Shown: in pieces, positions 1 through 49,786 of the stretch
Layout of the letters: the number at the start of each line of letters is the position of its first letter
How positions within the stretch are numbered: position 1 is the first letter of the stretch
Source: Lingula anatina
Taxonomy: Eukaryota > Animalia > Brachiopoda
Length of the DNA stretch: 64,000 nucleotides
Direction: 5' to 3'
NCBI GenBank assembly: GCA_051362555.1
Contig: CM120641.1
Coordinates: forward strand, 16,678,001 to 16,742,000
The notes under the pieces: generated by a model
The model's database searches: none
What the model was told of the DNA's origin: nothing
The model's input: the letters and a program-made list of their open reading frames with translations, nothing else
Program-made: the position numbers and the translations under genes

Positions 1-870
1 TGGTGATTAGGGTGATGATTGACCAAGTATGGTGAGTTTTGCGATTTTTAAACAATATCTATTGGACTTAGATATGCCATGCTTACAGCGTTTTTAAAAA
101 TGCTTTACCTGCATATTAAACATCAAAACTCTACATCAGAAACGAATGCGTCTAACTCATAATGGACCTTGAAGATGTGTTAGGATACAGTTTTGTGAAT
201 AAATCGAAAAGGTGAAATAGCCATTAGTATTGGAGGAATCCATTTTAATTCAATTTTTGGCACTTTTTAAATGTTCCAATTTGTAGCATATCATGGCAAA
301 AACCAAAAGAGCACCCCTAAACGTTTTTTTATGAATGGGATTTGCTCTCATGCTCTCAAGAAGTGACTTGCCTAATAACATATGTTCCTCACGCGTACTG
401 CAATAATCTCCCATTGGCGGTGTACATGCAATTCAACAAGGGTTACTTTTCTGCACTTTTCTTCCGAAGAGAATGGCGGAGTTGGTTCAGTAAGTGGGGT
501 TGATTATACTGTGCACCGCGCACCATATTTCATCCCACAAGTGTTCAATAGGGTTAGTATCAACATTTTTCCGCAACAAGTAACTCACCTAACTGTGAGC
601 GGGTGCGTTGCCATGGTGACGGTTTTGAGGTGTCAATTTTGTGATCATTTTCTAACGTCTATGGAAATCAATGTGGATTATCAGATTTGAGAGGGTGCAT
701 GGTCCAGATATTAATAAATGATGAACAACATGTATATTTTTTTGCTCCGTAATTCATGTTAGATATGGAAAAGAAAATAAAAACTTTTTAAAACGTTTTA
801 CAACGTGATATGATATGTTTCGCCAATTAAAATAAAAAATCTTCTATATTGTAAGTATTGTGCAAAAACC

Positions 871-1249
871 TTTATTGAGGTATGTATGAGGTATATATTA
901 TATATAAACATATACAGATGTAAGAAAACTGTCAATTCTTCTTTTAGATCTCTGTTTTTTCTACATAAATAAATATATAAATAACGTACATATAAAAATA
1001 ACGTACAAAAATACGTGTTTTGACACTTAGAGTATAATTACTATTTAGCAATTACCACAGTTTATTTGGCATAAAACATTTCTTTTGTAAAAAAAATATA
1101 TCTTAAATTTGTATAAAATGTGTAAATAAACTTATCAAAATAAAATGTGCGAAAAATGATATAAAATATTTCTTCATTTAAGTCTCTTCATCATGAGGCA
1201 TAATCATAAATGCGTTTCAAAGTCCGTTTGTTCGAGTCGTTTTGACCTT
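871..1249 (-). promoter_or_regulatory. AU-rich 3' UTR and poly(A) signals of the cytokine-like gene
   Basis: Minus strand TTATTTATATATTTATTTAT at 984-965 and TTATTTA near 1123-1129; AATAAA at 1066-1061 and 876-871. The genome is AT-rich, so specificity is limited. Confidence 0.4.
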
Positions 1250-3213
1250 TCATTTCAAAGAATTTGTTGTCAAAGTCACGATAAATCGTTTAAGATCTTG
1301 CAGCAGCGTCATGATTTTTAGTGCAGTATAGGTGCCAGTTCTGCGTAATTCTTCGCCATATACGTGGTCTTGTATTTTTCTCGCTTTCTCTAGAATCTGG
1401 GAGTCGATAGGGATGTAATTTTCGCCTAACAGAATTTTGATTTTACACAAAGGTTCGCTCATGGTGTTGGAAAATCTGCAAATGGACTGTTCCACCATTC
1501 CACTATCCGCCTTCGTAAAAATTTCCAATTTGTAAACAGTATTCAACCTTGCAGTTGCTTTAAGCATTTCTGTAAAAAGACTGGCCAGGTAGATGTTTTG
1601 TGCTTCCTGCAACGATACATAGAAGGGTACACAATGAGAAGAATAAAAAATCATATAAAATGGTACCAACAGATTTTAAATCATGACTATAGACACATCA
1701 TTTAAAAAAGTCTACCCTTTTACGAGACTTCCATTGGTCTATATGTTCCAATATTATATTATTTTCTCTGTTTCAATAAAAAGTTTAAATACATTAAGCA
1801 TGAGAGTACAAACGCTGGACAGTTGAAACATACTGTGAAGTTGAGTTGCTTGCCCTGTGGTTTTACATTTTGGTGCCAATCGCATTGTAGTTCGCTTGTA
1901 TGGAGGTTGGCACTTAGACCAGCTGACTGTAAACAGAAATTATACATCACTTTGAAATCAGAATTTTTCCAATGTTGAATTTTACTAATTTTCTAAACAT
2001 TTCATTTTCAAACACCACGATTGGACCTTTTTCACGCTGTGATATAGTATGGAATATTCCCTTCGCCTTTTAACTGATAACTGGATTGGTCTTCAAATAA
2101 CGACAATAAATCTCTCTCAAAACTTACATAAATGTTAAGCACGTCTTTTATTCTGTGGCAAGATGTCCTCCAAAGTCGCCTCAATGCCAAAAGGGTCCTC
2201 TTCATTGGAAAAACAGTCAATTGCACACCTGGACAGAAATACGATGGAAAAGTTGATGTCGGCATATGGTTTTGATGCCATATATACATATTATACATTC
2301 GATGCACTTAAATCATCAAAATATTTTCTCTAAGCTATCTGTGCAATAGTACTGTAAAGAACAACAGGGGGAAATGTAATTATATTCGATGCAAGACTCG
2401 TTCGTGCCAAAAGGAAGTAATTTCCACGTGAGTTTGGTGGGAAATTTTGTCACTGGTCCTATCGATTCCCAACAAGGGAATACTAGTGTCTGTTTCGCGA
2501 GACTAAGGCGCAATGGGTTAGTGCTAGCATCACTTACCTCTCCGTTGCCGAAAAGGAATCGCATCCACAGAACAAGGATTTTCGTAGTCAATATCAAAAT
2601 CCAGATTTTGATTTGATCGGCAAGATGTTGCGTCTAAGACATTAAGTGCACTAAACAAGGCCAAGCCAAATATTGCCGCTTCTGTAGAGAGGAAACAATA
2701 ATGGATTAGCATAGTTATTTTAATCAGTTAAGTCTCACAATTGGCATGTGATGTTTATTGTACAAAAGGTAGGTAAAGGAGGGAAAATTTACTCACATAA
2801 AGACAAGGCAACAGTCCATTAAATCGACACCTTTGATGTCATGCGTTTCATTGCAAACAAAAATAAAGAAACCACAACAAACATAATCGAATCTGTGTCC
2901 AAGTAGAAATTATGAAAATCTGTCGCACAATATATTTCCTTTTTAGTAGATGAAGAGAGAAAATTGTAAATTTGAGCTGAAATTACTTATTCGACACTCT
3001 ACATTATGTCCTGACTGTGTTCTTTAATTGTACCATTTATATTTTGTCATCTTCTATTTGTTACGTGAAATGTATACAATAGGTATCAATTAGACCATTC
3101 AAAGAAAAATAGTTATCACATGCAGAGGTATTTCTTTGGCTATTCTAACACCACATTAAGTGCCAAAACTTTTTCTTAACGATTACTCCTCGTTCATAAA
3201 AAAATTCGATTAT

Positions 3214-3255
<42 letters not shown>

Positions 3256-4863
3256 ATCGTTATCATCTGTCTCTTTACACTGATACTACGTTCTTCACTA
3301 GCATAATTACACCTTTCCACGCGAAACCTTTCAAAAACCACAAGAGTATAATCGCGGTTTATCCATCTCTCCCTACAGCTAACATTTTGCTCAAATATCG
3401 ATCTTGTTTTATGTAAACGTAGAAAGTGTCATACTCTCGTGGACATGCCAGCCCTATTAGACTCCCCATCTTTTCAGTTCATCGAGAAGGAGCATAATAT
3501 CATTGGCATTAAAAATTCTAAAACTAGATGTGACATTCTTTTGCTAGACTCAAAAGGTGCGAAAAAAACAGTTACAGGATGTGCTATTGCCGACGGCACT
3601 GTTAAGTTTCACTTAGGTTCGAATAAAACTGATGGCGGATGTGTTAATGGAGTTTAGTTACCATCATACTGAATTTGACAAACATTGAATACAGGTGGCT
3701 GTCTAGATCACAAGGACGCGTGCCTAATTTTATAATCGAGTATTCTAAAGAGTCGTACCTCTGGCGGTACAACTTACCTGGAGGTGCCAACCTATTCAAA
3801 TATCAAGTTTCGACGTAAAATGCTCCTGCTATTCTACACATACTTTCTTTCAAAAGTAGTAAAAAAAAGGGTCACTAATACATGTAGTGAAACAAAAACA
3901 CGAGTTTCCACAATCCTTAATGCGTGGTAAACGAATCAGTTTTTGTTAAAACATTTTTGGCACTGTGTGCTGCTGGAGTTCTATTCATGAAATCGGTACA
4001 TTGATTTTTTTATCACAATATAGGGGGCCTACAGCGTATACTTTGTGTAGCGTAAACAACAAAAATAACCGTGTCAAAGTGCATTGTGGCTATTTCCATT
4101 AATGAACTGTTAATGGGCTATAAGAGTCGTATCCTTTTCTGCTTTTTAACCATGTAGATATTCAAATCTGATCTGAAGTTAAGAGAAAATGAATAAAATC
4201 GAGTGGTGCCAATTTGTCATTTTTGGGAGGAAATAACGTTTTTGGTTTTGGGGTTTTCTGCCAAAACTGCCAAAATTACCTAAAAGACAAAACATTTGTG
4301 TACAAAGGGATATTTTTTAATGCCTGATTTTATGTACTTTTACATGAAATCACTCCATATTACAATGGACTGGCAATAACTTAGAAACAAACATATACGT
4401 CGACAGTATGCGATACCTATCAAGAGTCCATATACTTCTTAAAAAGTACAGTGAATTCCGTAGTTATTACACGAAACATATTTATCATAGCTTGTTCAAT
4501 CTGTAAAGGTATAAAACGGCGAAAAAATGTTCACGGGCAGGCAAACATAGGTTAATGATAAATAACTTAGTTGACAGCTTTACCTGTTATTGTTGACCCC
4601 ACGATCAGATAGATGATTTTATACAACGTTAGATACGTTTTTGGTTATCACAAACACACAAAAACATAAAAAAATATGGATTAAGCTCCCTTTACCCACC
4701 ACTTCCTTCTTAAGGGGAAACCTGAATGAAAATATTTAAAAGATCGTTTTAAATCAGAGTTAATACATACAACTGACTCAAAAGTAACCCGTTTGTTCCT
4801 TACTAGTCCTTAATCTGTGATTGCAATTAATCGTTTACACTTACCCTGGACTCTCATTCTCAT
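1250..4863 (-). CDS. Spliced 5-exon gene for a 237-aa secreted protein; putative long-chain four-helix-bundle cytokine (IL-6/LIF/Unpaired-like)
   Basis: Coding exons 4863-4845 (19 nt, CAGG|gtaagt), 2681-2538 (144 nt, ctctctacag| ... AG|gtaagt), 2228-2128 (101 nt, tgtccag| ... TAT|gtaagt), 1926-1834 (93 nt, tttacag| ... ACA|gtatgt), 1606-1250 (357 nt, ttgcag| ... TGA). Phases 1,1,0,0 join in frame to 714 nt: MRMRVQEAAIFGLALFSALNVLDATSCRSNQNLDFDIDYENPCSVDAIPFRQRR/GVQLTVFPMKRTLLALRRLWRTSCHRIKDVLNIYSAGLSANLHTSELQCDWHQNVKPQGKQLNFTEAQNIYLASLFTEMLKATARLNTVYKLEIFTKADSGMVEQSICRFSNTMSEPLCKIKILLGENYIPIDSQILEKARKIQDHVYGEELRRTGTYTALKIMTLLQDLKRFIVTLTTNSLK. The gene model is well supported by the splice sites; the cytokine assignment is inference. 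Confidence 0.75.
3216..3254. repeat. Poly(A) tract (~39 nt) in intron 1 of the cytokine-like gene
   Basis: Direct sequence. Confidence 0.9.
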
Positions 4864-4950
4864 TAGAGTTATTTCAAATCTATCCAATGCATATACTGCA
4901 AAATATTCAGTCTTTTATACCAATAAATTGATAGTAACTTCCTTTAATTT

Positions 4951-5049
4951 ATTTATAAAAATCCATCATTTTATTTTAAGTTTCCTTATCCTTGATTAAT
5001 TTTCATCATTCCTTTCGCAAGATTTGCGGAAGGTGCAATGGGAATCCCA
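4951..5049 (-). promoter_or_regulatory. Putative proximal promoter of the cytokine-like gene: TATA box, C/EBP-like and NF-kappaB-like sites
   Basis: TATAAAT on the minus strand at 4957-4951 (~90 nt upstream of ATG 4863); TTTCGCAA at 5013-5020; GGGAATCCC at 5040-5048. Confidence 0.5.
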
Positions 5050-8000
5050 TGTATCACCTTTTACTACCGATTAGTACAGGAATCGGTCACTTCACCTTTT
5101 CTGTGGGAATGTGTGTTAAGGGACTAAAGAACAGTATCTTGAAATATAAAACGCTTTTACATTGTATAAGGTGTATGAAAGTATCACGCGGGTCGTTGAG
5201 TTTGTCATACCTCGTACTCCTTTGGCCATTGCCATGTGTGGCAGATCACATACATATAAAACAGGAAAAAATCGATAAGCGTTTATAGTGCGAAACTACG
5301 AATATAAAAAGAAAAAAACGGCTTGCTGGCGAAATTAACTGACCTTAATGGCACTTTCGATGATACACTCAACATTTCGCATCCATTCAAGAGACATGTT
5401 ATATATGATAATCAATAATTTCATTTGACACGACCGAATTATGATCTTCGCTCGCCATCTTTCGCAAAACTCATTATGTTCGACTGTTTTAAACATTACG
5501 TTTAAATCACCTATTGCTAATTTAAAAAATGATTGTATTGTGACCTACCGATTTTATTAGATCAGATTAATATGAGACTTGTCACAGCGCCTTTGACGAG
5601 CTGTGGAGTTGAACGTGATTTAAAGCCAGAAACACGCCGTTTGCTTGCTGCGGGATATATGTAGTTTTTTGTTTTTTTTTTCATCTTTATAATAATTCTC
5701 TCCGCTTAAAGAGTATTCAATTGACTTTGGATCTGAAAATGGAGACACACGCACCGATGATAACCCACGCTGCACGACAGCTACTTGAAAAGAACACGGT
5801 TTTCCCCAAGTGAAAACTACCCTAATTTACTACCTCAATCTTAATCGAGTCCCATTTTGATTTCGCCTGACCCAGGTGCAGAAAGACTTGCTTTTAAATT
5901 AAAGCAGTTTTTATCGGTGTATCAGTTTTCACAGATGAGAATTGAAAATATCCCACTTTTAAAGGACCGTTCTTTTCGAATAGCTAAGGTCTCCTGATGT
6001 ACACATAAATTGTGTGTCTCCATCGGGTACGACACCTTCACTTAATCTTAAGTATCTTTTTATTTTAATTATTTCTTTTTTTATTGTAGTTCATTTTACT
6101 TGCTTCGTATCAATCAGTTTAATTCTCGCTGCATAAATGACGAGTGAACTGAGGTAAACTACTTCCCCTCGCAGGTAGAATATGCCTGAATTCTTCCACA
6201 GCCTCTATATCAATTATCAAAAATATGCATTGTTTCAATCTCATAGTTTCAAACGTACACTATGACACTTGATTCAGACTTACCCCTGTTTGGCTCTTCT
6301 TCCTATGTTTCGATTTCAAGTGATTCAAGTAATGAGAAGGATGCGACTACTGTGTTAAATTTTTGTTGGAGGATTCACGCACTAGTAACTTCTTTCTTCT
6401 ACTCCCAACAGAGACACGCACCAGTTAACATGTAACTTCACATTGTTCCACCTTAAAATAAAAAAAAAATCCCATTATTTGTGCTCCTTTAAAAAAGGAG
6501 TTCAGACAATTGTGTCGGTTATCGAATTTCGATAAATTTAAAAGTGAACGATTAAGGAACTAAATTAAGTTTCAGATTTATTAAGCATAGAAATTTTTAT
6601 TTCTTAAGATGTGGTATAGCGAAACACTAACCTATTTCCACTGCTCGCCTTGTGATTTAGACCATTTTTTATTTCAAGAAATGCAATTATTTCAAGAAAT
6701 GAGTGTTACACAATGTGTCTCAAACTGTCGAGCTGTCCCCGATGAAGACAAATGCCAAAAGTTTTTTGATTCAGGAATTACAAGCAATAACATAAACTTC
6801 GCTTTAAAATGACGACCCTGACAATAACATGAAGTCAAAGGTTTTATCAATTTATCAAGTAATATCTTTTAAAGATATTTCGATTACTTTAACAAAACAG
6901 AGATGCGTAAGATTTATAACGGATGAAAATCTAACCAGATGAATCAACTGTCAATTTTTGCAACTGTTCAGAAAAGATTTAATCCGGAAACACAGCACCT
7001 TGATCGATTTTTACGGGGTTATGATATTTTTGTCAAAAGATAAATAATTGGAGTAAAATATATAAAAGGAAATAAGTTTCACTAAAATTTTGAAATTTCG
7101 GTAAGTAATAATCTTTACCTACATTTTTTCAACGGTTACAATGTTTTGCAAATGTGTGCTCGAGTTAGATATTCACTTCACAGAGGACCTGAGAAGACCT
7201 TATCTATGATCTGATCTCCCATACGTCCTTATGAAGTTTCTCAAAAGTCTTGATATCGATTTTCTTATCAAGACGTTCTCCACATGTCTTAAAGAAACGA
7301 GTATTTACGAAAACATCTGTGTTATATTAGATGTACGAACGTCTTCAACAAACGGCCTCTTCGCGAGAGGTCGCCGTGACCAAGACCAATGGCCGAGTGG
7401 GCAGCGGCAAACACTGCAATTTTCATGCAGACTTTACATGAGGTACTTGCAATCATTTATCAGTCGCACTTTTCGTGTCTCCGATTAGGCGAGAAGTTTA
7501 AAGGAACATAAATTTAAGTTGTAGAAAGTAAAGTGCTAGTAATACCCTTATCTGAGTTGTTGTGACCCTTGAATAATATGCAAGTTATAGCAAGGGGCAC
7601 AACACTGGACTATAAAGTCAGATTTCAACTTACAAAATCAGATTTCAACTGTGACCCCAAAGTCAAAGTAGAGTTCACAGTCATCCGGAACAGGCCTACG
7701 ACGAAGCGTGTGTCGCTCCTAGAGCGACTGGGGGCGGTGGAAGCATCTGTATTTGGGGCGGAATGCATGTTGATGCCAAAACCTCATTGGCAGTCAACGA
7801 TGGAAACCTGAGCCAGATCAAATACATGAATATTTTGGAAACCAACTGCCTCCCATTTGCTAGAGGGCAAAAGTCGGGGAAAAAAATTCACATTAAATTT
7901 CAATTCTGTGTAATAAAAGGGTTCTATTCATTACATCTATTTCGTTGTCCCATTTAAATAAACTTTTAAAACCATTACAAAGATCACTCAGAGGTTCAGT

Positions 8001-9872
8001 TCACGTTTAAAAATGTCCCAAATTCATATCCTGCAAGCTGATTTTCTGTCCTATTAAAACGACGAAACTCCTTATTTAGAAACACCAGATGTTAATTTTT
8101 CTCAATTTTTCATAAGTGACAGGGAAAAAACTCATTACCAGCAAAATTATTTTATTATAAATCGTGCAAAACATCCCATCTATGAGCAAGGGCGGGGCTA
8201 GCAATGATACGCAATAAGGAGAAAATGTTTTTTTAACATAATATTTGACCCGATATAGATAGGATGCCTTAAACAAGAAAATAACATGATTGTCTGCGGA
8301 TCGTTTTGTACATCTGCAATTGCGACAGATGAAACACAACCTCATAGGCATCGGTGGTTCCTGCAAGACTACAGTCAAGGAGGACCTGCACTCTACCAGG
8401 TGTGTCGGTAGAGAACCTTAAAAGCGTCTTCTCTGAAGGACAGGTGGAGAAACTGTACATGTAGCTTACTTTGGGCTGTTCTTGCACTAAGGGCAACCAG
8501 CAAACCATCAGACCACTGGGTTGTTAGTATGTGCTGTATGTCCAAGGGTAAGATTAAAACATTTGCTTGGACCTCAACCATCAAAGTCGCTGCTAGAAGC
8601 CTGGGGTTTACAAATCACAATGGAAAACATAGCCCATACGTTTCACGACCATCCAAACCTAGACCAAAAAACATTAAAAAATTGAGAATTAGGAGGAATA
8701 ACGATCTAATGATGAATTCAGTAAAATAAAAACACTCTTTAAATATCAATTCATACAAAAACCAATAAAATAATGAAAACTATTACAGGGCACACCTACA
8801 GCATTTGATTAGCTTTCATAGATTTCAGTCTAGTTTCTAAGACGTCGATGCGTTAAGGTAAAAAAAAGTAGCACCAAGGTTGTGAAAAAAAATCATTTAC
8901 GCCTGAAGTAACTGCATATCTCCAAATCGAATTTGACAAGCGCGTCATAAATCATTCTGCCTAAAGTGGTTACAAAGCCTCTGTGCGTGCGTGCGGGTGA
9001 AAGGGGGGGGGGGGGTTCTGACGCCTGTTGATGTGAAGTACTCCAGGTCAGCTTATTCATATGCAAAGATTCTTGGAAAGAGAGATAATGTACAGCGCAG
9101 TGAGTGACATCGTGACAACTGGCTGTCTCGTACCTAGAGGGAAACGGTGGCGTGATTACTTCTCTTACTTTACGATAATCGCAAATAATAAGAGAGTGCA
9201 GTTGACTGTACCTGCCGCAAGTACACGTACCTGGGGTAAGCAGGTGCAAGGTTTCATGGAAGAATATAGAAAAGGGGAAACACATGCTTACATGCACCAT
9301 ACAAGCAAGGCTGACAAGTGTTGACGATATAAGCCTACAACCCGCTGAGCAACTACCGCTACAAAAACGTTTAGTTGATCAAAAAAGCCTTCTGCAGTCT
9401 ACCTTTACCCAACTTTGTGATAATTCAATGCTTTACCATGACGTCATGAGGACAGCTTACCCCCCTATTTACCTGCCTTCGAAAACATTTAATTCACAGT
9501 ATTTATATTTCGATTACGCTTAGATTTATTGTGCATGTGCCATGTGTGAGACAACGCATATAGACTTAAACTTTATATTTATATATAAGAGCTTTTAAAG
9601 TAGGTCATAGACGGTTTCTGCTAAAAAGAAAATACAGCATTTCATTTGTTTGCAATTGATACGTGCACAGGAAACCGGATGATCATTGAACTGGTGAAAT
9701 ATGAATAAGGAGGGAAAACACTTTTGTCAGAAGCTTCACATTGGGCATACTATACCAAAGCACACGCGTTTTCCAATAACCCCGAATGCCCTAAGCTTAC
9801 CAGTGATTAGTTTGAAGCCGTCAACTTTCCCATAGAGCTGCATATTGTTGTGACAGTGCTTCACGCAAGAAC

Positions 9873-10802
9873 ATGGCGTCAGCGAGTTTAGTTCGATCTA
9901 CCGATCGTAGAAATTCAGTTACTACTGGACCACTAGGCTACACCATCACCGCTGAAATAGGCCGAGGGGTGTTTGGAGTTGTTTTTCGAGGTGTGGATCC
10001 GCGAGGAAATGACTGCGCTATGAAGCATGTACATCTAACCAGTCCCGTAGTTCGGGCTGAGATAGCAATGTTATCCCAACTGCATCCCCACCCGAACTTA
10101 GTACGGGTTCTTGAAGTCAGCGAGGATCATAAGAAACCGGACTTTGTATGGTACGTGATAGATTTTTGTACAGGTCCAACCTTAAATGATTACATCCTAA
10201 GCTCTGTTCCTAAGATAGACGTTTCTTTAAAGCTTAAGCTCATACTAGACGTCGCCAATGCATTACAATACCTGCATTCAAAAAACTTGTTGCACCGCAA
10301 TCTTAAACCCGACAATATATTCGTGAGTGGATTTGAAGGAGGGGAAGGGATTGTCACTCGGTGTAAAGTGGCAGATTTTGGCTTGGCACACATTTGGGAA
10401 GCTAATACCACCCTCCCGACATCGTACTATACCAAAACCTCGCACAGCTTCGGACCCCCATTTTACACAGCCCCTGAGGTAAGAGAATTGAAGATTGTTA
10501 CGGACAAATGTGATATTTACTCGCTGGGAATGCTTTTACTTGGATCGATATTGGAAACGACGGCACAGTGCCTGTGGGCAGTAGAGAAGGAAATGCTGGT
10601 GCCGATAATCAATGATCAAGACATAGAAGAAGCCACACCTTTACAGATACAGAAAGCAATGGAAGACAAAGGTGTTAGAAACACCCAGCTAATCCAAATT
10701 GTCATCCACATGCTGTCTGTTGATCATGAAAGGAGGCCTAATATATTTGAAGTATGCTCACCTCTACTGGATGCGTTATTTGCGCATTTTAATTCCAGAT
10801 AG
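9873..10802 (+). CDS. Intronless Ser/Thr protein kinase-like protein, PDIK1L/STK35-like; probable pseudokinase (HRN)
   Basis: 309-aa ORF with G-loop GRGVFG, beta3 Lys (CAMK), alphaC Glu (AEIAML), catalytic loop HRNLKPDN, KVADFGLA, YTAPE and KCDIYSLG. Confidence 0.85.
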   Translation: MASASLVRSTDRRNSVTTGPLGYTITAEIGRGVFGVVFRGVDPRGNDCAMKHVHLTSPVVRAEIAMLSQLHPHPNLVRVLEVSEDHKKPDFVWYVIDFCTGPTLNDYILSSVPKIDVSLKLKLILDVANALQYLHSKNLLHRNLKPDNIFVSGFEGGEGIVTRCKVADFGLAHIWEANTTLPTSYYTKTSHSFGPPFYTAPEVRELKIVTDKCDIYSLGMLLLGSILETTAQCLWAVEKEMLVPIINDQDIEEATPLQIQKAMEDKGVRNTQLIQIVIHMLSVDHERRPNIFEVCSPLLDALFAHFNSR

Positions 10803-13089: not shown

Positions 13090-13654
13090 TAGTTGGGGGA
13101 GGGTAAGCATTCCGAAGGAAAAAAGATATTGTTATTGGACGGCAGACGTAAAATAATTTAGGTAGGCCCTAATGGCCCCCACAGCCTACCCCAACCCAGG
13201 TAAACTGGTACAAAATAAACAGACACGCCCATGTTTCGTGGATGTGCATAATGCGAATATGATTAATGGCTTACAGGTTGGACTCGAGTGGTTCCACTGA
13301 AAACCTGCTATTCATGAGACACACAAGCGACTGTTCTAGAGCCCTCTCTACAGTTTCAAACCATTTAAAACGGCATGGAAGTATTTAAGTTACGGCATAA
13401 GTTACATGCCAGTGGATATATACATGTACCTTTGTGAATGTGAATATCCTTGCATAAAATGCTCAACTCTGAAAATGATTCCTACAAATCGTACCATCCG
13501 TGGGTACCGAACACAAGCCGTCGGTTCAAAATGCTCACCTTTCATGGACTATCTAAACTTCCATAACATTTGGGCAGTTACCGGTATATGTGATTTGAAA
13601 ATCTCAGGGTTATCAACTATTCATGGTCCTTGTGGTGTTTTTCAGGCTCATGCA

Positions 13655-14290
13655 TAATTAATAATAATAATAATAAGTTTATTGAGCACTAAATGATATG
13701 AATACATTTGCAGGCTCACTAGACTACATTATTTACACAATATAAGGATATACATTTATATATGTTTACATATGCAGTATGCTAAATTACACGTGTTAAT
13801 GCTTGTTAGCGATTCACAGCATTATCGACAATTAGTGACGGTGATGCACTAAATTGCAACTATGTATTTTAACAGCAGTCTTTACAAATTCTATTATTTC
13901 TTTGAGACTTTTTTCACAGGGTGGATTAAGGAGAATTGACAATACCTGACCACTGTCCTCTAGACCCACTACATTGATTTTCAAGAGTTCATCATGCATT
14001 CGTTGCCTTTCAACAGTGTATCTTGCACATTCCGGGAGGAAGTGTTTTCATCCTCTACGCAGTTGCAAGCTTTACATTTTCTCTCATCAAGTGGAGTTTT
14101 AGGGTTTGTGTATCGGTCCCTTTCTATTGCCAGGTCGTGATCACTGCCAGTGGAGGAGACACTCATTTTGATGTATTTTTCACATTCATAAGATATTTTA
14201 ATTCTTTTGTATGTCCTTAATTGTTTGAGGTCCAGTTATTTAATTCCTGCCAAAACAGTTTTTCAATTTTTATGTTCAATTTTTCTACTA
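13655..14290 (-). mobile_element. 5'-truncated, degenerate non-LTR retrotransposon (LINE) 3' end
   Basis: Minus-strand fragment ...HDLAIERDRYTNPKTPLDERKCKACNCVEDE resembles the C-terminal Cys-motif region of LINE ORF2 proteins and is frameshifted. It ends in AATAAA plus a (TTA)n tail at ~13655-13683. Confidence 0.7.
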
Positions 14291-16515
14291 GGTTTTCTAT
14301 TCCATGTATTTTCATTGGGTGGTTGGACCACCTTTGCACACGATTAACAATTGCCCTGATATAGCGGTACTATTACGCGCTTACACCAGTATATGCAGAT
14401 AGAAAACTCGGCATGCGACACGTACAGTTTGCAGTCATGCCACGTTGTGATAGGGGTTACAGGTAGAAAGTTACAGGCTATGACATGAAAATGCCCAAAA
14501 AGGTACCCTAAAATGTTACATCTGACCAGCATGGATAGTATTGGGGAGGTTATGGTTCCAGAGTATTTATTAAAAAATTAATAAATAAATAAAGGGGTCA
14601 CTTTTAACGACAGTGATTTAATGTGAGATGCAGGCCTTATTCGCCCATTCGCTATGTTTTTTAAAATACAGCATTTTAATGTAGCAATAGCTCAGGTGGC
14701 TGGCCTGTCAGGACTGATACCATTATGAATTCATCTGTGTAAGCATTGTGGTGGTGTAACACGTGTTAGCACAAAGTCGACGGCGGTGGCAGTGTGATCG
14801 ATCACTGTACTCTCTAACTCACGTTAATGACATAGCGCACAGTTGCCGCGGTAAGGTGGAAGGAACGAATTTTATCGTGGTTTCGACACTATTTTGGTGG
14901 CCATTGTGAACTACACCTTACTCATTCTACCGTTCCTTTTATTAAATTATTCTTTCATGTAACCGTCACTTGACACTACAAGCCCCCTTGGGTGGTTTCA
15001 AATTTTATTATTTCTTATACTGTAACTCATCGAGTGCTCTTTATTTGGTATACGTGAGTCATATAAAGCGTATATATCAAATATAAAAAGTAGCTAATTT
15101 TGAGTAAACGATTATACGTAAGCCTTTGCTGCTGAATATTGAGTGGAGAAACTAGAAATTTGGGCGGGTAACATTACAGATTTCTTCTTCTTAAAGTGAA
15201 TGCACTACGTAATCGACAAAATGACAAAAGACTGGAATATATGCTAATATTCAGTTGTGTGTCATAATGTATTTTTAGAGTCGTTACAATTAGTTAAATT
15301 TCAGTAAATAGATCGTATCAAATCACCGCAAAGATTTTTAATAAGAAAAGAATAAGTCATAACTTATTTAGATTACTTATTTACTAAATAGTTCAAGCAC
15401 GCATGCCCTTTTAAAGAACTACAAAAGTTAAAGAAGTATTTTATCTTACTGGTTTACAGTCGTTGGGAGCATATTTTAAGTGTGGTAAGTGTGTGTATGT
15501 GGGGGTAACCACTAGAAGAAAATAAGTTACAGGGTAGTAAAATAACCTCAGTTCATAAGTAAACCGGACTTATCTCCTCCGATGCAGCAGGGGGTGATTC
15601 TTAGCGGGTCGGCCAAAAGGGCTGAAAGGGTTTTTTAGGAGTTCTCCTTGATCTTTAGCCACGAGGTTGGAGTCCTGTGTAGACGGTTCTTCTGAAATCC
15701 AGGTTTCGCCACGGTGTTACCACTGTCCCTAAGAGATGGTGCTGACAAGTTTTTCTTACGGCGTTTTGTTTTGTGGAGTCTTCGATCCTGTCTGGCTGTT
15801 GTTTTACGTACGACCAGTACTAATGTTTGGTCGCAGAACACTTCATCTACACAACTTGCCCACCTCTTTTAAAGGCTATATGACGAGGCACCGCCCCCTC
15901 TTTAAATGTGCTGCACAAACTTACAACTGCAAACTCCAGTACACGTAGAATATTATTTTTCTCCGATTTATTATATATATATGCCTTTAACAGCCTTGTA
16001 CCCCACTCAAGATATTTGTTCGATTTCTGCCACTTGGAGATTGTTTACCATTGCTACAGTCAGCTTTATAAATAGTTTTGTATCAGCTTTTAAATTGTTG
16101 GGATAACAATTTAAGATTACAATTGTGCCTGTAATTTTAATAATATGCCATCATTTTAGCAGGACTGCAATATGAATTTTTTCTTTAAATTATAGGCAAT
16201 TCCACTTTCCTTCTTATTAAGCAAAAAGCTAAATTGGCTAAATCTTTACACACCCCGGATTAAGAAGGAAAAGTCCCAATCCTATAACTATGGTTGGTTA
16301 AGTTGGAAGGTAGATAATGTTATGCGATTCATTGCCATACCACGCCCCATTTTCCATAGGGGTCAGATTTTAGTAAAATAGAAAATCGCTATCAAAATTT
16401 GTCCCCTTTTTGGTTATAATTTGCCGAAATATGGGTTGTGGCCCAAAGCCTAACAGAACAGTTTGTGATGCAGCGGGTTGGTCACAAGTGACAATGCAGT
16501 TCGTTAAAATGGAAT

Positions 16516-19500
16516 TCAAAACTCCGTTTGCGGTCTCTTCGCTAACCAATCAGCTATCTTTGGGAGAGCTTTAATGCGGCCAAGGAATGCTTGCAATTCG
16601 TCGCAATTTGCCATGCATTTGGGGAACTTAACCACCATCCCTGAACATTGATCGAAGACTGCTAGATCGGCAATGGAGAGCTGAATGTGAAAAGAAATAC
16701 AGTCAATTATTCGAATGAAAAACTACGATGAAATAAGAGTTTAGTTTTTAATATCTTATATATCTCACTTAATTTTGAAAAACTAAAAAATAAGACCACC
16801 ATTTTGAATATAAAAGTAAAAATACTGTACATCTTAATAATATGAGCAGCACAATACAATATTTCAAGACAAAGCCTTTTGTCTAACCTTGTCTCCTGCA
16901 AAGTATCCTTTGCCGCCGTCGTTGCTTTTTAAAAGTTTATTAAGGCGTTGCATGAATCCAGGCAGTGTTTCATCAGTTAACTTCTTTTCTTTCTCTGCCT
17001 AGGAAAAAGATGGAGGACCAATGAAGTCAACAGAACTATCACTTGATATTCGATTGGTTTGAAACAAAATTGGCCTTTAAAACCCTGGTCCCTTGTCCAA
17101 AATTCTATTACGGCACCATGGTTACCCCCCCCCCCCGGACAATCCCCCTCAAGACAGCCTCACCCCTATTCCAGGAAACAAAATACACAGCTTTTTCACT
17201 ATGTACTTGAGCCATTCACACATTTCTTGAATTTTTTACTGAATGTAAAAAAGAAGACAAAAAATTAAATAAAAACAATGATTGGATATTGATTATAAGA
17301 CTCGGTAGGCTCATTATACGCTTAAAAAGTGAGGTAACTTTAAATTTCAAGATGCTACAGATGCTTCAGGTGCATATTTGACATTACTAATAAAACAAAC
17401 ACTACACCATTTTATCCATTTTTCTACACAACTTTCACTTGATTAAGGGGAAGGGGGGTAAAACAGTTAATAGTACCAGTTCATCAAAGGGATTCCTAGA
17501 TGAGAGAGATTATTTGTTTAATCCGCCTATACCTGGAGATACATTTTGATTAAAGGCAGTCATTATTTTGTTTCAATATCACACTGTTCATGCTCAGTTT
17601 GATATTCATTACAGGAAGGGGAATTGCCCAAAGGGAATTGTCCGGGGGGAGGGATATCGGGGGGTAGGGGGATTGTTCTGATACCCTACATGTAATACAC
17701 TTCTTGTCACAGTTATCAACCATTACGTACACCAAACAGACCAGTCACTTAAATATGCTACCTTCTTTGCTTCATCTTGCTCGAAATGCCAGTCGATAAG
17801 AGACTTGGTCATATCCTCTAAAGTGTAAAGGACCTGGTCGATCATGGCACCGTCCATGGTACTATTTCCATAAAGCCCTAGAAAGAAAGAATTGAGTTGT
17901 AAAAAACACTGAAATAACTTTAAGGTGGCTAGACTTTGTACATGTAGCACAGCCGCTGCCTTTGATCAACGCTTAAAATTTGTTTCTGTAAGGTAATCTC
18001 TTACGTGTTTAAGCCTAGGTCCCAACTACGTTTTGGACGCACGGTTTTTAGGTTCCTTGCGTCCGACTAGGACGTAGCTATATCGCAGGGAAGAAATCAA
18101 GTAATTGGTGATAAGTTTCTACGTGCTGTTTGCGTCCTCCAAAAGTCGCACTATGGACGTGCTCCTCAGGCACGAATTCCCAAGTATGCCCCATTTTTTG
18201 GGCCGTAGACCACACGTAGCAGCCCGCACGTTCGGTTGGGACCTAGGCTTTACTAGTAAGCGAAAACTACAATGCAGAAAATCTTTGAACATCTGTCACA
18301 TTCCTTACCGTGTTCTCGTGCCACATAACGCGCCATAGCCAAACTCTGACCAATCTTCTTCCCGTCCACCTCCATGAATGGGCTCTGTCCGGTTGGGCTC
18401 ACTGTAAAATAAGTGAAATTATGTTAAACGGTAATACTTGACTATGACGCCTGGCCTGGTTGTCAGATCCATGCAGCTTCGTTATTTTTAAATTGCGTGG
18501 ATATGTGAAGATTTAAAAATGACGAATGCTGACTCGCACAGAATCTGAATCTTAGGGTCTAAAGCTAACAAGGCAGAATATGTAACTGGCATAGGGCTTC
18601 AGACCCATGAGAGTTGAAATTCACATATTAAAATGCCACAATGAGAAAATTCGAAATTTTACAAAAAAAGTGCACAAATTCAAGAAAAATAATGTTATCA
18701 AGCGGGCTTTCCAATAAGAGCTGTATGTCAATCCTAAGAATAATTCTTTAAGTTAGAAAATAATGTAACACGTTTTTCCTTTCAGAGCTTATTTAATTGC
18801 AATGCAAAATGTTTTACTCAATTGGGACGCAATATTATATAATGATTAACTACATAACATGGGCATGTAAAAATGTTGTGACTGCCATACGGCGTGTTTA
18901 TGCCATCGGGAGTTTAAGTCCCACACTGAAAATGCCAGTATGTGAAAAATGAACATTTCACAAAAATTGCATTTATTTCCACAAAAATAGTCCAATCAGG
19001 CTGCTTTAAGCTGTATTTTAGTCCTATGAATATTTTCTGTGAGTTTTGGAATCATAAGTAACATGGTTTTCTTTCAATGGTCATTATGACGGCAGTGCCC
19101 AAAATAGGGCCCGGTTTCTTCAATTTGATTCAAAATTACATAATGCTTAACAGCATAATGACCACCAATTTTAAATAGTTCATAAATTGGATATTCAGAA
19201 AAATATAATTAGCAAAGGCTTTCAGGCCCATGGAAGTTCAAAGTCACACCTTGAAATTGCTCTTATGTGAAAAATAATCATTTCACAAAAAACTTAACTT
19301 CCATAAAATTAGTACAATTAGACTGGTTTTTAAACTCAACCTGTATTTCAGTCCTTTGAATAGGGGAGTTGGACCCCGGGGTAAGTTGCCCCCCCCCCAT
19401 CAAGTCACTTTAATAAAGTTACTTAAAGATGCTAAATTATTTCATTTGGACTCACTGCCGACGCTTTCTTAGCACTATTGGATACGATCACTTTACAAAA

Positions 19501-19826
19501 TGATGTGATCAATTCTTTTACCCCATAGTTACTTTGTCATAAATTGATGGGGCCAACTTACCCCGGGGTCCAACTAGCCCCGGTCTCCCCTATATCGACA
19601 ATTATAAGTAGGCCTAACATGGTTTTCCTTTCATGGTCATTATGGCAGCTGCGTCCAAAATAGGGTTTTCTTCAATTTTGATGCAATATTACACAAAGCT
19701 AAACAGCATAATCACCACCATTTTGAATAATATAATAAAACATCTTGGATATTCAGGAAATGTGACTAGCAAACGCCTTCAGGCCCATGGAAGTCCAAAG
19801 TCACGCCTTGAAACTGACAAATGAAC

Positions 19827-19858
<32 letters not shown>

Positions 19859-21090
19859 AGAATGCATAACTACAAGGAAAAATCCAATCAGGCTGGTTTC
19901 TGAACTCGACCTGTATTTCAGTAATACTTATCACTCCTGTTAGTTTGAAGACAATAGTTCGAGGTCAGTGCGATATTTGTATTGCATATATGCTGAAAAA
20001 AGGCTAAAAATTTTTTTAATGGTCTGACCAAGCTGATTTACGAACTCGACCTGTATTTTATGAATATTAACTTCTGTAAGTTTGAAGACAATGCAAGTAG
20101 TTCAAACGGTTTTCCATTTATTTATTTATTCGTTGTATCTCTGGAAATGCACGGCGACGGCGAAGACAGCGAATGGCTATAAAAAGTCAGAAACCTAACG
20201 ATATCGAATGCATCTACCACTATTGGTTATATCTAAAATCCGTATGCTGTTTCATAGGTTAGATGTAAAATACTAAACTTCATCTACCTATCCCTTAAGA
20301 TGTCTAGGGATGTATAGTTCTGGGGAGTCTAGCCATCACCGCTAGCGTACCGGTGTCATGAAAATGACAGTCCGTGTGACAGAAAGTCCGCCCTCCATAT
20401 AGTTACAATGGTTAGGGTTAGTTTGATCTAAGCGGGTCAAAATCTAGGGCGAGACTCACCTGTATAAATGATTGGGAAGCGGACTCTCTGTCAAGGGGTA
20501 CATGATACCGGGTACTGTATATCGCAGAGATAATCACAAGCCTTGGAACAATGGCACGTCCGCTCTATCAAAGGTCAGCAGGGCGATGACATCATTTTCC
20601 CCAAAATATTTATCGCTCACAGTACAGAAAAGTGCAGAGATATAGCCAGAGAAATAAAAGTGAATATCAAGTGGAAATTGTTTACTGGGGCCATGGCAGT
20701 AGGTTTATAGGTATAAGATACATGGACCTAAGCGTAAAATGAGGTAATAGGGAATCATGCTTTGTTCCGTGATTGTGGTGCTCGCTGAACTTCCACTACA
20801 TGCACCAAGAAACGTACGAGCAGGTGCAATCTCTCTTCTCTATTGGATTAAGACTAGTATTTCAGGCGATGCAACAAATAAAGAATCAATTGAATGACTC
20901 AAATGTTTTATGAGAATCAGACATGTAAGATTACAAATGGAAATAACTCACGCTGCTTGTAGTTATTAAGCCAATCATCACGGTCTTTAAATCTGATGTC
21001 TTCATATTCCACACCGGCAGCAGCAAGCGCCAGACGGGTAATCTCTGCACGTCCTCGTGCGTTAAAATAATATACCTTGTAGCTCGGCAT
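16516..21090 (-). CDS. Glutathione S-transferase, sigma class (paralog 1), 5 exons, 207 aa
   Basis: Exons 21090-20952, 18401-18309, 17877-17762, 16998-16888, 16680-16516, all GT-AG and in frame (624 nt). Motifs [70 protein letters not shown]. Confidence 0.92.
18012..18249. mobile_element. MITE, PIF/Harbinger-like, in GST1 intron 2
   Basis: TIR AGCCTAGGTCCCAAC ... GTTGGGACCTAGGCT flanked by TTA direct repeats. Confidence 0.75.
18567..20185 (-). mobile_element. Helentron-associated (HINE/DINE-1-like) element with degenerate internal tandem repeats, in GST1 intron 1
   Basis: The reverse complement shares TTTTT-ATAGCCAT...GTCGCCGT, the AATATTCATAAAATACAGGTCGAGTTCG repeat unit and the 3' CTGCCTTGTT end with the elements at 59271-61533. 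Confidence 0.65.
19361..19592. mobile_element. MITE with TAGGGGAG...CTCCCCTA termini nested in the HINE-like element
   Basis: Inverted repeats GGACCCCGGGGTAAGTTG / CAACTTACCCCGGGGTCC with TA at both ends. Confidence 0.65.
20348..20511 (+). repeat. Dispersed short repeat family (further copies at ~23010-23180 reverse and ~50080-50175)
   Basis: Shared core TCAAAATCTAGGGCGAG..CTCACCTGTA.AAATGA..GGGAAGCGGACTCTCTGT in three places. Confidence 0.7.
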
Positions 21091-42643: not shown

Positions 42644-44008
42644 TTTTCTCTGGTTACACGTCGGAGTGCCACCAGAGGGTACGTTCAGTTTGACGACAAC
42701 GCAAAATTGTCTTTTTTACTGTAGTTTTATTGTTTTTCTTATCTCAAAGGTAGAACATTTTCACTTTCTATCATTTATATACCACATTTGTAACTAAATC
42801 GTTCACCCTTCCACTAGAAAGTTATGTCGTTAAAATATCAAACGCTTCTGCGGTAAAATGAAAATTCGCAAGGAATGGTGGAATCAACAGGTAGATTCCG
42901 TGGTAAGTTCTGGGGGTTTGATTATGGCAAAGTTCATGAAATGATAATTATGAAATTAATAGGCCCTTAAAATGCAAGAGAAGGATACTGGAGAATTCAG
43001 ATGACACCAACACATACAGAACATTTAGTGTCAAGTGACCGTATTGCCGCCGACTGTAAATTAATAGATCTATCAATTTGATATTCATACTACGGAGCAA
43101 AGGCTGTACATTACAAAGATTCATTTAAGTTGACAGTGGCAGTTGTCGTCACTGCCTGTAAAAAGTCCGAATGATGTATTTTGCCTAGCATCTCAACCTT
43201 TATGTAGCTGCATAATTCGCCCCGAATTAAATCGAGGATAAGATTTTAATTAAAATAATGATTTTTTTTATCCTTTAAAAAAAAATAACAGGTAACTAAC
43301 TGTTAAGTACTAGCAACAGTTTATTGCCATAAGAACTTAATGTAAAACAAAGGCCATTTATTTTGTCCCTTTAATAGTTTATTTTGTGACGTGGCTTCAG
43401 TCATATGATATTGTATTACCTGAAGGTGAATAAACACAGTCACCTGAATACACTCATACATTGCAGTTGACAGTGACATGAGTCCAATGCTGGACTATTA
43501 TTTTCTGGTCTAGTGCCTCTAGTGCATGAAACCCAACAATAGGACATATAGCTATGCATTGTTGTTCTTGTTTGGTTAGAAATACAGCTTTCAAAGCAAG
43601 GGTAGAGAATTACTAGTACTATGTAATAATATGTTAAAGAGATACATGTTATATTCTAGACATTATGTTCAGGTAGTCTTATTCAAAGCTGTCAACTTAA
43701 TTTTGTGGTGGTGCCCATTTAACTTTGTGAATTATTTTGTATGTTCTCTTTTTCCCCCAGTAACTACATATATGCATTTCCTTAGTTTTTAAGTTATGTA
43801 TTTGAAATACTTAACATCTTTTTAAATTAAGGTTTATTTATATTTATCATGATGATTTGCTGTATTGAATAACTAATTCCATTTAGTACTCAGAGTATTC
43901 AATAATACTGTAAAATAAAACTGAAATTCATTCTTTTTTTAATTTCAGATATGCCCCTTTAATAGACAGAAGGTTTAAAGGAATCATCTGAGACAGAACG
44001 TAAGGTCC

Positions 44009-46261
44009 ATGGGGAAATCAAGCAAAAAGAAAAGCAGTATGGCAAAGAAAGGGAATACTAAACAAAAGAGACTTGTCAATGCCTTTGAAGTTGTGAACAT
44101 CACAAAGTCCTTGGTCATCACAGACTTCTTTCATTTTTTCTATGCTGGTGGTAAAGTTTGCCTTCTGCCATTTCTGACTTTATTTTTCCGTCAGTTGGGA
44201 TTGAGTGCGACACAGGCTGGGATAATATGTGCAGCCAAGGCATTGGTGGGCTTGGTAAGCACACCACTGTGGTCTGCTTGTTCGACTAAGTGCAATGTGA
44301 GGAGAGTGACATTGATGAGCTCCATATTTGTGATGATTGCAATATACCTGGCTTTGACTTTGGTGCCACCTGTGAACCAGCCTGGCAAGGAGTCCCTCAT
44401 GTTCTGCTCTCAAAACCAAGCCAACCAAAACTCGGGACACAACCCACAGACATCTAACAAGACTGTTGTTCATGTGACTCTACCTAAGATGCCTTCAACT
44501 GTGACAACAGTATTTATTTCTACAACAGCAACAACATTATCAGACAAAGAAATGGCAACTAATTCATCCCAGAGTAAGCAGAAGGAAGGTTCTACACCAC
44601 CATCACCAAGCGTAAGTCCTTCAAGTTCTGCCAGTCCTGCAGCTGAAACAACAGCAGCTGCTGGAAAAACAACAACTGGGTCAGAAAATAATGAAGCTTC
44701 TGGTTCAGGCTCTGACAATACTAAAACTGTTTCCTCAGCTCACTCCAACTTGGCCGAAACAACACCATGGTTTTCCTCTACTGGATTTGTTTCATCAACA
44801 TTTTCTGTTTCCCAGGGTCTCCTGTCAACCACAAGCCCAGCATCTGACATTGAAGTTGGTGAAAGGAAGCCTGACGTCCACTTGTCAAAGGCACAGATAA
44901 AGATGTTGATCAGGCAACTTGGACTTACAAGAGAGGACTTGATAAGTATGACCAATAAAGAACTTAAAGTCTTATTGACAGAAAGGTTAAAGGAGTTAAC
45001 TGCGCTTAAAAAAGCAGGGAACAAGCATGGTGAGTGGAATTCAAATCTAGAGGAAGGGGAATCTTTTGGAAGAAACCCATATGACCAATTTGAGAGAAAC
45101 AGTTTTCAGGGTAGGATTAATAGACACACTGTACACAAGAGGTATGCCAATGAAACTAAGGGACTGCTGGATAAGTTGAAAGACCTGAAAGAAAAACTGT
45201 CTGCCAGTGAATATTACAGTAAATACAAGACTTTCCTGGTAATTATGTTTGTTCTTCTTCTTGGAGAATTCTTTGCGGCTCCAACTGAGAAAATAGCAGA
45301 TGATGCCTGGTATGACTTTCTGGAGAATGTTGATGATGTGGAGAAATACGGCCAACAGGGATTCTGGGCTCTCTTAGCTACTGATATTTTTGCTGTGGTC
45401 ATAGCACTCATTGTGGACAACACTGACTGTGTCCTGAGCCTGAACATCAACCACTTCATGATCCACTTCTACATGTTTGCTGGCCTCATGACTCTGAGCC
45501 TGCTGGTTGGTTTCTGCTACCCTCTGACAGGCAAGTGTAAGAGTAAACCCAGGAGAGGTGCTGTGATGAAGACTGTGAGACTTCTCTGCTGTGACCTGAG
45601 GTGTTTCACCTTTGCGGTCTCCACTCTGGTCATGGGGATCATCCGAGGCAGTCTCTTCAGCTTTCTTTTCTGGCAGATTGAAGACCTGGGTGGTACGGAG
45701 ATAGTCATGGGTCTCACCATCACTGTGGCAGCATGCGCAGAGATTCCAATGTTCTTCATGGGTGGGTGGCTTGCCCGTAAGATCAGCAGCACTGTTTTGG
45801 TAGGCACAGCCCTGGTGGCCCAGGCAGGGCAGTTGGTCTATTTCTCCTTCCTGTGGAGTCCCTGGGCTGCTGTTCCCATACATGTTCTCAATATGTTTAC
45901 AAGCACTGGCTTTTGGAAGGCAATGGAAACGCACCAAGACTTTTCCACCAGCCACCACGCAGGAATAGGAAGGACAGTCAAGACGTTCTTGAATGCTATA
46001 TACAATTGCCTCGGATTTGCCATTGGGTGTGGCCTTTCAGGGTGGCTGTATGATCAGTTTGGCATTGCCATTTTGTTTAGAGGGGCAGCAGTGCTGTGTG
46101 GAGCTTGGTTTTTGCTGTTCCTTCTGCTGCAGAAGTGTGTTCCCAAAAAAGAGAGAGTAGAGTACATCAAACTACTAAATGCTGATGATGACACATTCAG
46201 TGATTCCTCAGATAACTTGTATGAAGATGACTGGTTAAAAAATGCCATGAAAGAAGCATGA
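44009..46261 (+). CDS. MFSD6L: Major facilitator superfamily domain-containing protein 6-like (MFSD6/MFSD6L family), single coding exon, 750 aa
   Basis: FFHFFYAGG..CLLPFLTLFFRQLGLSATQAGII N-terminal MFS motif, a long Ser/Thr-rich loop, YGQQGFW, FLFWQIEDLGG, C-terminal TM helices and a DSSD..EDDWL tail. An acceptor tttcag at 43948-43949 indicates a 5' UTR intron. Confidence 0.85.
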   Translation: MGKSSKKKSSMAKKGNTKQKRLVNAFEVVNITKSLVITDFFHFFYAGGKVCLLPFLTLFFRQLGLSATQAGIICAAKALVGLVSTPLWSACSTKCNVRRVTLMSSIFVMIAIYLALTLVPPVNQPGKESLMFCSQNQANQNSGHNPQTSNKTVVHVTLPKMPSTVTTVFISTTATTLSDKEMATNSSQSKQKEGSTPPSPSVSPSSSASPAAETTAAAGKTTTGSENNEASGSGSDNTKTVSSAHSNLAETTPWFSSTGFVSSTFSVSQGLLSTTSPASDIEVGERKPDVHLSKAQIKMLIRQLGLTREDLISMTNKELKVLLTERLKELTALKKAGNKHGEWNSNLEEGESFGRNPYDQFERNSFQGRINRHTVHKRYANETKGLLDKLKDLKEKLSASEYYSKYKTFLVIMFVLLLGEFFAAPTEKIADDAWYDFLENVDDVEKYGQQGFWALLATDIFAVVIALIVDNTDCVLSLNINHFMIHFYMFAGLMTLSLLVGFCYPLTGKCKSKPRRGAVMKTVRLLCCDLRCFTFAVSTLVMGIIRGSLFSFLFWQIEDLGGTEIVMGLTITVAACAEIPMFFMGGWLARKISSTVLVGTALVAQAGQLVYFSFLWSPWAAVPIHVLNMFTSTGFWKAMETHQDFSTSHHAGIGRTVKTFLNAIYNCLGFAIGCGLSGWLYDQFGIAILFRGAAVLCGAWFLLFLLLQKCVPKKERVEYIKLLNADDDTFSDSSDNLYEDDWLKNAMKEA

Positions 46262-48658: not shown

Positions 48659-49786
48659 ATGGTTTGTTGTAAACTGAAAATAATGAAAAATGCATTATCA
48701 ATGAAGAAGCAACGGGCAATTCATCTGCTTCAAATCATGTTGCTTGGATGGGTATGTTTCACATTTACATGCTTTCAAGGTCCAGCCGTTACTTCTGGGC
48801 GACGTAGGATGTTGATCAACTCGACTAAGAGGGTTGCAGCTACTAGTACTACCGAATCCTCAGCGTGTATTGTGCCGGAGCCTATATGTGCCATGAAACA
48901 AGACAAAGCACATCTGTGGTATCACATCAGAAGGTATGGGTACACCATCAATATTCCCCGTGCTTGTAAAACCGATAAAGGCAGGCTATTTCTTCTTGTT
49001 TTTGTTATTTCGGATCCAAACGATTTTAAAGGAAGGGCACTTTTTCGTCGCTTCTGTGGAAATATAAAGGAATTTGAAAAGAAAGAAATCAAAACTTTCT
49101 TTTTTGTCGGGCAGGCGATAACGGGGACAGAAACGCGTGGTCACTACAACATAACAGATGAAAGCAAAATGTTTGGTGATATAATTCAAGCGGATTTTAT
49201 AGATTCGTATCAGAATATTACATTGAAAACTATCCTGGCGTTCCGTTGGATAACTCAGTTTTGCCCAAGTGCTCAATACATTTTACGCTGTGGACACGAT
49301 GTGTTTATAAACTATGAAGAAGTTGTAAAATATCTGTGCAATATTTCCGCAACAGGTTTGACGTCAAAACTTTTCACAGGAGACCGTCATAGTGCGCTCT
49401 CTCGTGTCTGGCGAAATCCTGACAGTAAATATCACCAGACACTCGAGCAGTACAGTGCAGAGAGATTCCCAGCTTTCATATCAGGTTGGGCGTCTATTTT
49501 TACCTTTGATGTTGTCTACCTGCTTCACTGGGCCTCTTCTGGAAAACATTTGTTCATAGAAGACGTCTTCATGTCCACGATAGCACAAGAACATAACATA
49601 ACTCTTCTTCACAACAGACATTTCTTACAGTGGAGCGAAAGATGGCCCAAGGCAACTGGTGAACTAGTTCGTCGGCTCAAATGCCGTCTGAGACGTGCGT
49701 TGTCTATTCACGGCGCGCCCCAAAATCAAGACTTTTGGAGATTTTTGAACAACACCGCCAAGAGGAAAGACAATGTCTGCAAGTAG
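48659..49786 (+). CDS. Beta-1,3-galactosyltransferase-like protein (GT31 family), single exon, divergent catalytic motif
   Basis: Type II TM near the N-terminus, LLVFVIS, DESKMFGDIIQADFIDSYQNITLKT, WITQFCPSAQYIL, FPAFISG, FIEDVFM. The usual DDD/DxD motif reads GHD. Confidence 0.85.
   Translation: MVCCKLKIMKNALSMKKQRAIHLLQIMLLGWVCFTFTCFQGPAVTSGRRRMLINSTKRVAATSTTESSACIVPEPICAMKQDKAHLWYHIRRYGYTINIPRACKTDKGRLFLLVFVISDPNDFKGRALFRRFCGNIKEFEKKEIKTFFFVGQAITGTETRGHYNITDESKMFGDIIQADFIDSYQNITLKTILAFRWITQFCPSAQYILRCGHDVFINYEEVVKYLCNISATGLTSKLFTGDRHSALSRVWRNPDSKYHQTLEQYSAERFPAFISGWASIFTFDVVYLLHWASSGKHLFIEDVFMSTIAQEHNITLLHNRHFLQWSERWPKATGELVRRLKCRLRRALSIHGAPQNQDFWRFLNNTAKRKDNVCK

Follow-up and report, generated by a model that had tools for sequence, protein, structure and literature searches.

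The window analysed here, a stretch of 64,000 nucleotides from the brachiopod Lingula anatina, carries close to its start a minus-strand gene with five coding exons (Table 1), whose coordinates and lengths of 19, 144, 101, 93 and 357 nt were checked in the DNA. The four introns that separate them, of 2163, 309, 201 and 227 nt, are all GT-AG and have phases 1, 1, 0 and 0, and the spliced coding sequence of 714 nt encodes 237 amino acids and a stop, with one N-glycosylation sequon (residue 117) and six cysteines. The exons, splice sites, phases, uninterrupted frame and sequon had all been given in a preliminary description of this locus, which had also proposed an invertebrate host, and each was reproduced. 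The same description had called the gene hidden, which it is not. A search with the last exon returned a single protein, identical across 118 residues, XP_013415591.1 (LOC106177381, Lingula anatina, uncharacterized, 235 aa), which is the same gene model begun at the second Met, so that the gene is already annotated and merely unnamed. The RefSeq record carries neither function nor family, and the alternative first exon and short form described below are absent from it. In the 3' UTR we counted six ATTTA motifs against 3.1 in shuffles, a difference that is not significant (p = 0.08).

Table 1. Features of the five-exon gene and its upstream region, in window positions
Feature	Position	Strand	Remarks
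3' UTR, AU-rich	857..1249	-	AATAAA at 1066 and 876; read depth reaches about 857
Exon 5, coding part	1250..1606	-	Predicted helices B, C, short CD-loop helix and D, then stop
Exon 4	1834..1926	-	Holds Cys103 and N-glycosylation sequon 117 within the predicted long AB loop
Exon 3	2128..2228	-	Predicted helix A (63-88); contains Met63, where the exon-1b transcript has its first in-frame start
Exon 2	2538..2681	-	Hydrophobic part of predicted signal peptide and acidic pro-piece with RQRR, a predicted furin site, at its end; symmetric exon (phase 1-1)
Exon 1a, coding part (signal-peptide start)	4845..4863	-	Phase-1 donor GGTAAGT; used in the RefSeq model from the second Met; no supporting read among those listed
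TATA box	4913..4919	-	56 nt upstream of the first ATG
C/EBP-like motif	5013..5020	-	0.21 expected by chance per 300 nt, weak alone
kappaB-like palindrome (candidate)	5040..5048		Upstream of exon 1a; sole such 9-mer site in 64 kb
Alternative first exon 1b	6284..6307 (minimum extent)	-	Apparently a short exon; has an in-frame stop and lacks an in-frame ATG; joined to exon 2 across an intron of 3602 nt

Head-to-head with this gene, about 3.5 kb from exon 1b, a protein kinase domain (PF00069, E 4e-37) is encoded on the plus strand at 9816-10802 by one single open frame, 328 codons long, with good read cover in RNA-seq run X2 only (depth 10-32). An expressed minus-strand spliced gene, or more than one, occupies 13620-20000, with CT..AC joints at 16680-16888, 16997-17761 and 17876-18308 and many loose ends and repeat-like joints at about 19000-19800. 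Two further single open frames on the plus strand encode an MFS_1-like transporter with a long Ser/Thr-rich insert (43979-46261, 760 codons; PF12832, E 2.5e-47) and a member of the galactosyltransferase family (48647-49786; PF01762, E 3e-32). Tandem arrays of a 161-bp unit (87-93% matches) and of related longer periods fill 59266-64000 and continue past the window end.

Transcripts and first exons

Exons 2 to 5 are spliced and expressed, with the frame intact. Seven of nine available RNA-seq runs were mapped, namely X1, X2, X4, X5, X7, X8 and X9, and the three downstream junctions were seen in five of the seven, with spliced reads across junctions 2-3, 3-4 and 4-5 numbering 9, 6 and 9 in X7, 7, 9 and 10 in X8, 9, 7 and 6 in X9, 1, 7 and 4 in X2 and 0, 1 and 2 in X1, where junction 2-3 was absent. 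X4 had no read across the 64-kb stretch, and X5 had zero depth on the gene. In X1 and X2, first mates were on the plus strand only, which fits a minus-strand RNA. The fourth junction of the preliminary description, 1-2, had no read among the joints listed: depth was zero at 4782-4938 in all four runs viewed there (including X1, X7 and X8), none of the 23 loose ends that were listed for the acceptor of exon 2 in X7 and X8 joined exon 1a to exon 2, and for X2 and X9 the junction was not among the 15 of 35 joints listed.

The 19-nt first exon had been described as joined to exon 2; the reads seen use another one instead. All 23 listed loose-end reads at the exon 2 acceptor (15 in X7, 8 in X8; agreement 1) carry a sequence that matches the window once, at 6285-6303 (1 mismatch; chance mean 0.02), with a GTAAGT donor directly after the match. 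The overhangs on this exon 1b are short, with medians of 11 nt in X7 and 14 nt in X8, and explain the whole X7 depth in the bin 5928-6568 (about 160 bases, that is, 15 reads of 11 nt), so that exon 1b is probably short. It is defined by loose ends in these two runs of one study and is not among the 15 of 35 joints listed elsewhere. None of seven scanned motifs is present in the 300 nt upstream of it.

In the exon-1b transcript the first in-frame ATG is Met63, preceded by two out-of-frame short reading frames (2 and 12 codons). Since exon 1b has no in-frame ATG, this transcript would yield a 175-aa signal-less protein from Met63, and because Met63 is the exact start of predicted helix A, the short form would retain the entire predicted bundle. 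CNTF is a protein released on damage, and the working product here might similarly be the signal-less 175-aa form, intracellular or damage-released, with exon 1a minor or unused. The uniform use of exon 1b among the listed reads and the integrity of the predicted bundle from Met63 would suit such a product, but exon 2 retains an in-frame hydrophobic signal core and a furin site, exon 1a is used by RefSeq, two out-of-frame ATGs come before Met63, and exon 1b is known from two runs of one study; we regard this as improbable.

We favour instead a secreted product that starts in exon 1a. The window contains 51 mini-exons with an ATG and a phase-1 donor, or 0.4 per kb on each strand, so that a 19-nt exon by itself is not above chance; exon 1a is still likely to be real, on its RefSeq usage and its promoter context of TATA, C/EBP-like and kappaB-like elements. 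By consensus patterns that were picked after inspection (kappaB, C/EBP and others), a kappaB-like site lies upstream of only one of these 51 mini-exons, and that one is exon 1a. We suggest that the secreted form is made from an inducible promoter and the signal-less one from a basal promoter.

Protein anatomy and predicted structure

A hydrophobic N-terminal segment spans residues 7-24 of the exon 1a form; the exon 1b form, which is the read-supported one, is without it. After about residue 24 follows a 30-residue acidic stretch with a pI of 4.8 and two Cys, closed by RQRR (51-54), a predicted furin site whose end falls exactly at intron 2. The domain beyond it is basic and has 183 aa, 21 kDa, a pI of 9.5 and four Cys, and its length, together with the long-short-long spacing of its segments, fits the long-chain cytokines, whose core has some 170-200 aa and consists of four amphipathic helices of 20-30 residues joined through long AB and CD loops. 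Intron 3 marks the end of predicted helix A, and intron 4 that of the AB loop.

Four amphipathic segments had been proposed for this domain. Set against shuffles, the hydrophobic moment sustains A (p = 0.016) and C (p = 0.027), is borderline for D (p = 0.064) and leaves B not above shuffles (p = 0.19), with p = 0.029 for the CD-loop helix, all of these values being optimistic since the segments were chosen by eye. Predicted helix C contains Pro171. Single-sequence AlphaFold models had pLDDT values of 32.4 and 36.6, too low to use; both have a helix at A, at B, in the CD loop and at D, with strand or coil in the helix C region, and fold searches with them came back blank. The ESM Atlas's own model had a pTM of 0.65 and a pLDDT of 0.61. 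No cytokine appears among the ten listed Atlas structure rows for either query, the best TM being 0.44 for the whole protein and 0.50 for residues 50-235, in a search that recovers about two thirds of best matches. An up-up-down-down topology is predicted for the Lingula protein; this topology defines class I long-chain cytokines, and IL-6 is described as having a short helix in its CD loop (PMC7378365).

Family assignment

Sequence searches place the protein in no family. Pfam returned zero families, even at E up to 10, and the IL-6-family HMMs PF00489, PF07400, PF01291 and PF01110 gave no match at E up to 10. Sequence relatives were absent among 1.84 billion representatives, a PDB sequence search gave no match, word-indexed searches found only the protein itself, and there was no sequence similarity to insect Upd1-3 (only self matches and no Pfam hit). 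The label of an IL-6/LIF/Unpaired-type cytokine, under which the gene was first described, finds no backing in HMM matches to IL-6 or LIF families or in sequence matches to Upd1-3, and the protein can be assigned to none of these three subfamilies.

Language-model features point to long-chain cytokine families. An ESM Atlas feature search scored 0.94, with 214-218 of 256 features common to the protein and the top three clusters, of which one holds unnamed arthropod proteins, another unnamed mollusc proteins, 11% of them carrying PF00489 (IL6), and the third chordate proteins, 24% of them carrying Hormone_1. LIF, IL-6, G-CSF-like and IL-12 alpha clusters are among the further listed rows, and the ten best family-bearing hits share one family or clan (listed as IL6, Hormone_1, LIF_OSM, GCSF, IL11 and IL12). 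Residues 50-235 gave a like picture, adding CNTF/cardiotrophin, with LIF/OSM and IL-11 listed; the two feature searches are one source of evidence. Vertebrate long-chain cytokine clusters have feature scores of 0.90-0.94; by the tool's calibration, a score of 0.9 is attained by 4-10 of every 100 shuffled proteins, and ten hits from one clan by a third of them. The feature counts found here (197-218) are above 170, the tool's figure for same-family hits. No interferon cluster is among the Atlas rows listed, and the phases 1, 1, 0, 0 differ from those of class II interferons, which have five exons, phases 0-0-0-0 and five helices (10.64898/2026.05.30.728932).

Judged mainly by these language-model features, the product of the gene is probably a long-chain cytokine with four helices (class I helical). 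The original four-helix reading gains support from the Atlas features and is favoured further by the length, the hydrophobic N-terminal segment and the spacing of the amphipathic segments; the fold itself is a predicted one, with no cytokine in the listed Atlas structure rows and AlphaFold models that are unusable. Amphipathic helices and a signal peptide might by themselves produce such a match in a secreted helical protein that is confined to this lineage and has no relation to cytokines, or in a gene under relaxed selection, and the empty sequence searches, the lack of a cytokine in the listed structure rows and a pN/pS near 1 (see below) speak for this. This is nevertheless unlikely, given that the feature counts exceed the same-family figure, the match persists without the signal peptide (residues 50-235), exon boundaries track the predicted helix/loop borders, and the frame is intact in diverged individuals.

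If the protein is a helical cytokine by fold, it might still be a GH/prolactin/leptin-like hormone, or act on another receptor (e.g. CRLF3-type), rather than serve Domeless as an inducible immune ligand. Among the listed hits, Hormone_1 clusters form the largest set (11 of 30 for the full length and 12 of 30 for residues 50-235), the pro-piece and furin site are hormone-like, and a functional GH-like cytokine is described in amphioxus (PMC9010856). In those clusters, however, only 14-32% of members carry Hormone_1, and the kappaB-like, C/EBP-like and TATA elements at exon 1a together with fast divergence suit an immune role better, so that we consider a hormone-type function rather unlikely.

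Comparison with known ligands

The Lingula gene resembles the vertebrate IL-6/gp130-family and G-CSF (PF00489, PF07400, PF16647, PF03039, PF01110) in size, predicted N-terminal signal, five coding exons and signal-peptide intron, and also in its predicted four amphipathic helices, long AB and CD loops and CD-loop helix. It differs from the IL-6/gp130-family in having no sequence or HMM match, an extra furin-site pro-piece and helices B-D in one exon, its fold being a predicted one. The IL-6 gene has the phase pattern 1,0,0,0. In Lingula five exons and a signal-peptide intron are likewise present, but the phases are 1,1,0,0, an intron sits at the border of the pro-piece, and just two lie within the bundle. 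IL-6 genes are described with five exons, a single intron within the signal peptide and three in the domain (PMC13081863).

Mammalian LIF (PF01291; first exons D, M and T) shares with Lingula a tiny ATG-bearing first exon and an ATG-less alternative. The LIF first exon has 19 coding nt. Among the alternative first exons of LIF, that of LIF-T is without an in-frame AUG and leads to an intracellular protein (PMC538256, PMC8358831). LIF has three exons, however, and the Lingula short product is predicted only; as no homology to LIF is shown, the first-exon layout may be convergent. Drosophila Unpaired 1-3, the Domeless ligands, are secreted helical ligands of a protostome and have a basic mature domain in common with the Lingula protein, but there is no sequence match, and no Unpaired cluster is named in the listed Atlas rows. 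Upd proteins bind matrix. Of the amphioxus GH-like cytokine and vertebrate GH/prolactin (PF00103), the former is a class I helical cytokine that comes from an invertebrate and is about as long as the Lingula protein, and many Hormone_1 clusters occur among the hits; the hosts there are chordates, however, with no sequence match, and the GH-type cysteine pattern is not evident in Lingula. The amphioxus protein has 208 aa, and several class I cytokine genes are reported from that animal (PMC9010856).

A 2026 survey of 18 animal groups, including Brachiopoda, reports IL-6-family ligands in vertebrates only and suggests that the mollusc receptor module is perhaps driven by other ligands; its section 3.3 lists a Lingula STAT, and a Lingula receptor is not stated in its text (PMC13203501). 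Structure-guided screens have recently found lamprey IL-6 (PMC13081863), a lancelet interferon (10.64898/2026.05.30.728932) and IL-1 across animals, including Lingula (PMC13736523), so that such discovery is current. Our literature search found no paper naming a brachiopod helical cytokine; preprint supplements could list invertebrate four-helix candidates.

Proposed mechanism

With some reserve, we favour a secreted long-chain four-helix cytokine that would act on a receptor of the Domeless/gp130 kind and activate JAK/STAT; the second first exon would give a signal-less form. Upon immune or wound stimulation, the proximal promoter (TATA, C/EBP-like, kappaB-like) would drive exon 1a, which would give the ATG for the signal peptide and hence secretion. 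Signal cleavage is predicted near residue 24, and a predicted furin-type cleavage after RQRR54 would remove the acidic pro-piece and free the basic 183-aa domain, which would fold into the four helices A-D, with the AB and CD loops being long. By analogy with the family, the bundle would then bind a class I cytokine receptor of the Domeless/gp130-like kind, and JAK/STAT signalling would follow. At rest, exon 1b transcripts would give the 175-aa intracellular bundle from Met63, or else little protein, because two short upstream reading frames come first. The protein would work like the IL-6 family, but it has no HMM match to that family and its introns are placed differently.

The odds that it is a JAK/STAT ligand seem to us slightly better than even. 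A fuller version, in which a furin-activated brachiopod JAK/STAT pro-cytokine is made as an intracellular form from a basal promoter and as a secreted ligand from an NF-kappaB-inducible one (the LIF-D/LIF-T logic in a protostome), is speculative and on balance unlikely. If true, class I cytokines, and perhaps the promoter switch too, would predate the protostome-deuterostome split. An expressed Lingula candidate makes the question of invertebrate ligands testable with one recombinant protein, and the two first exons yield a prediction, namely that infection or wounding should move transcripts from exon 1b to exon 1a. The weight of the candidate is tempered by the existing annotation of the gene, by a fold that comes from one language-model source and by the similar unnamed mollusc and arthropod clusters in the Atlas.

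Divergence between reads and window

The X7 and X8 reads show 22 nearly fixed coding differences from the window, 16 amino-acid-changing and 6 silent, and indels confined to the 3' UTR. The resulting pN/pS is 0.80; a ratio of 0.2 or less is rejected (p = 0.002) and a ratio of 1 is not (p = 0.62), and as the value is indistinguishable from 1 and stands without a control gene, selection may be relaxed. Predicted helix D has zero changes, and the only changes on hydrophobic faces are F130L and M168I, both conservative. The pattern fits a fast-evolving ligand, with no control gene beside it.

Across 857-2681, about 3% of coding sites differ in X7 and X8 but no more than some 1.4% of sites in the 3' UTR, and almost all of these differences are fixed; the two runs may derive from a different population or from a cryptic species. 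At 2642, a change in the same reads abolishes the upstream ATG that comes first in the exon 1b transcript.
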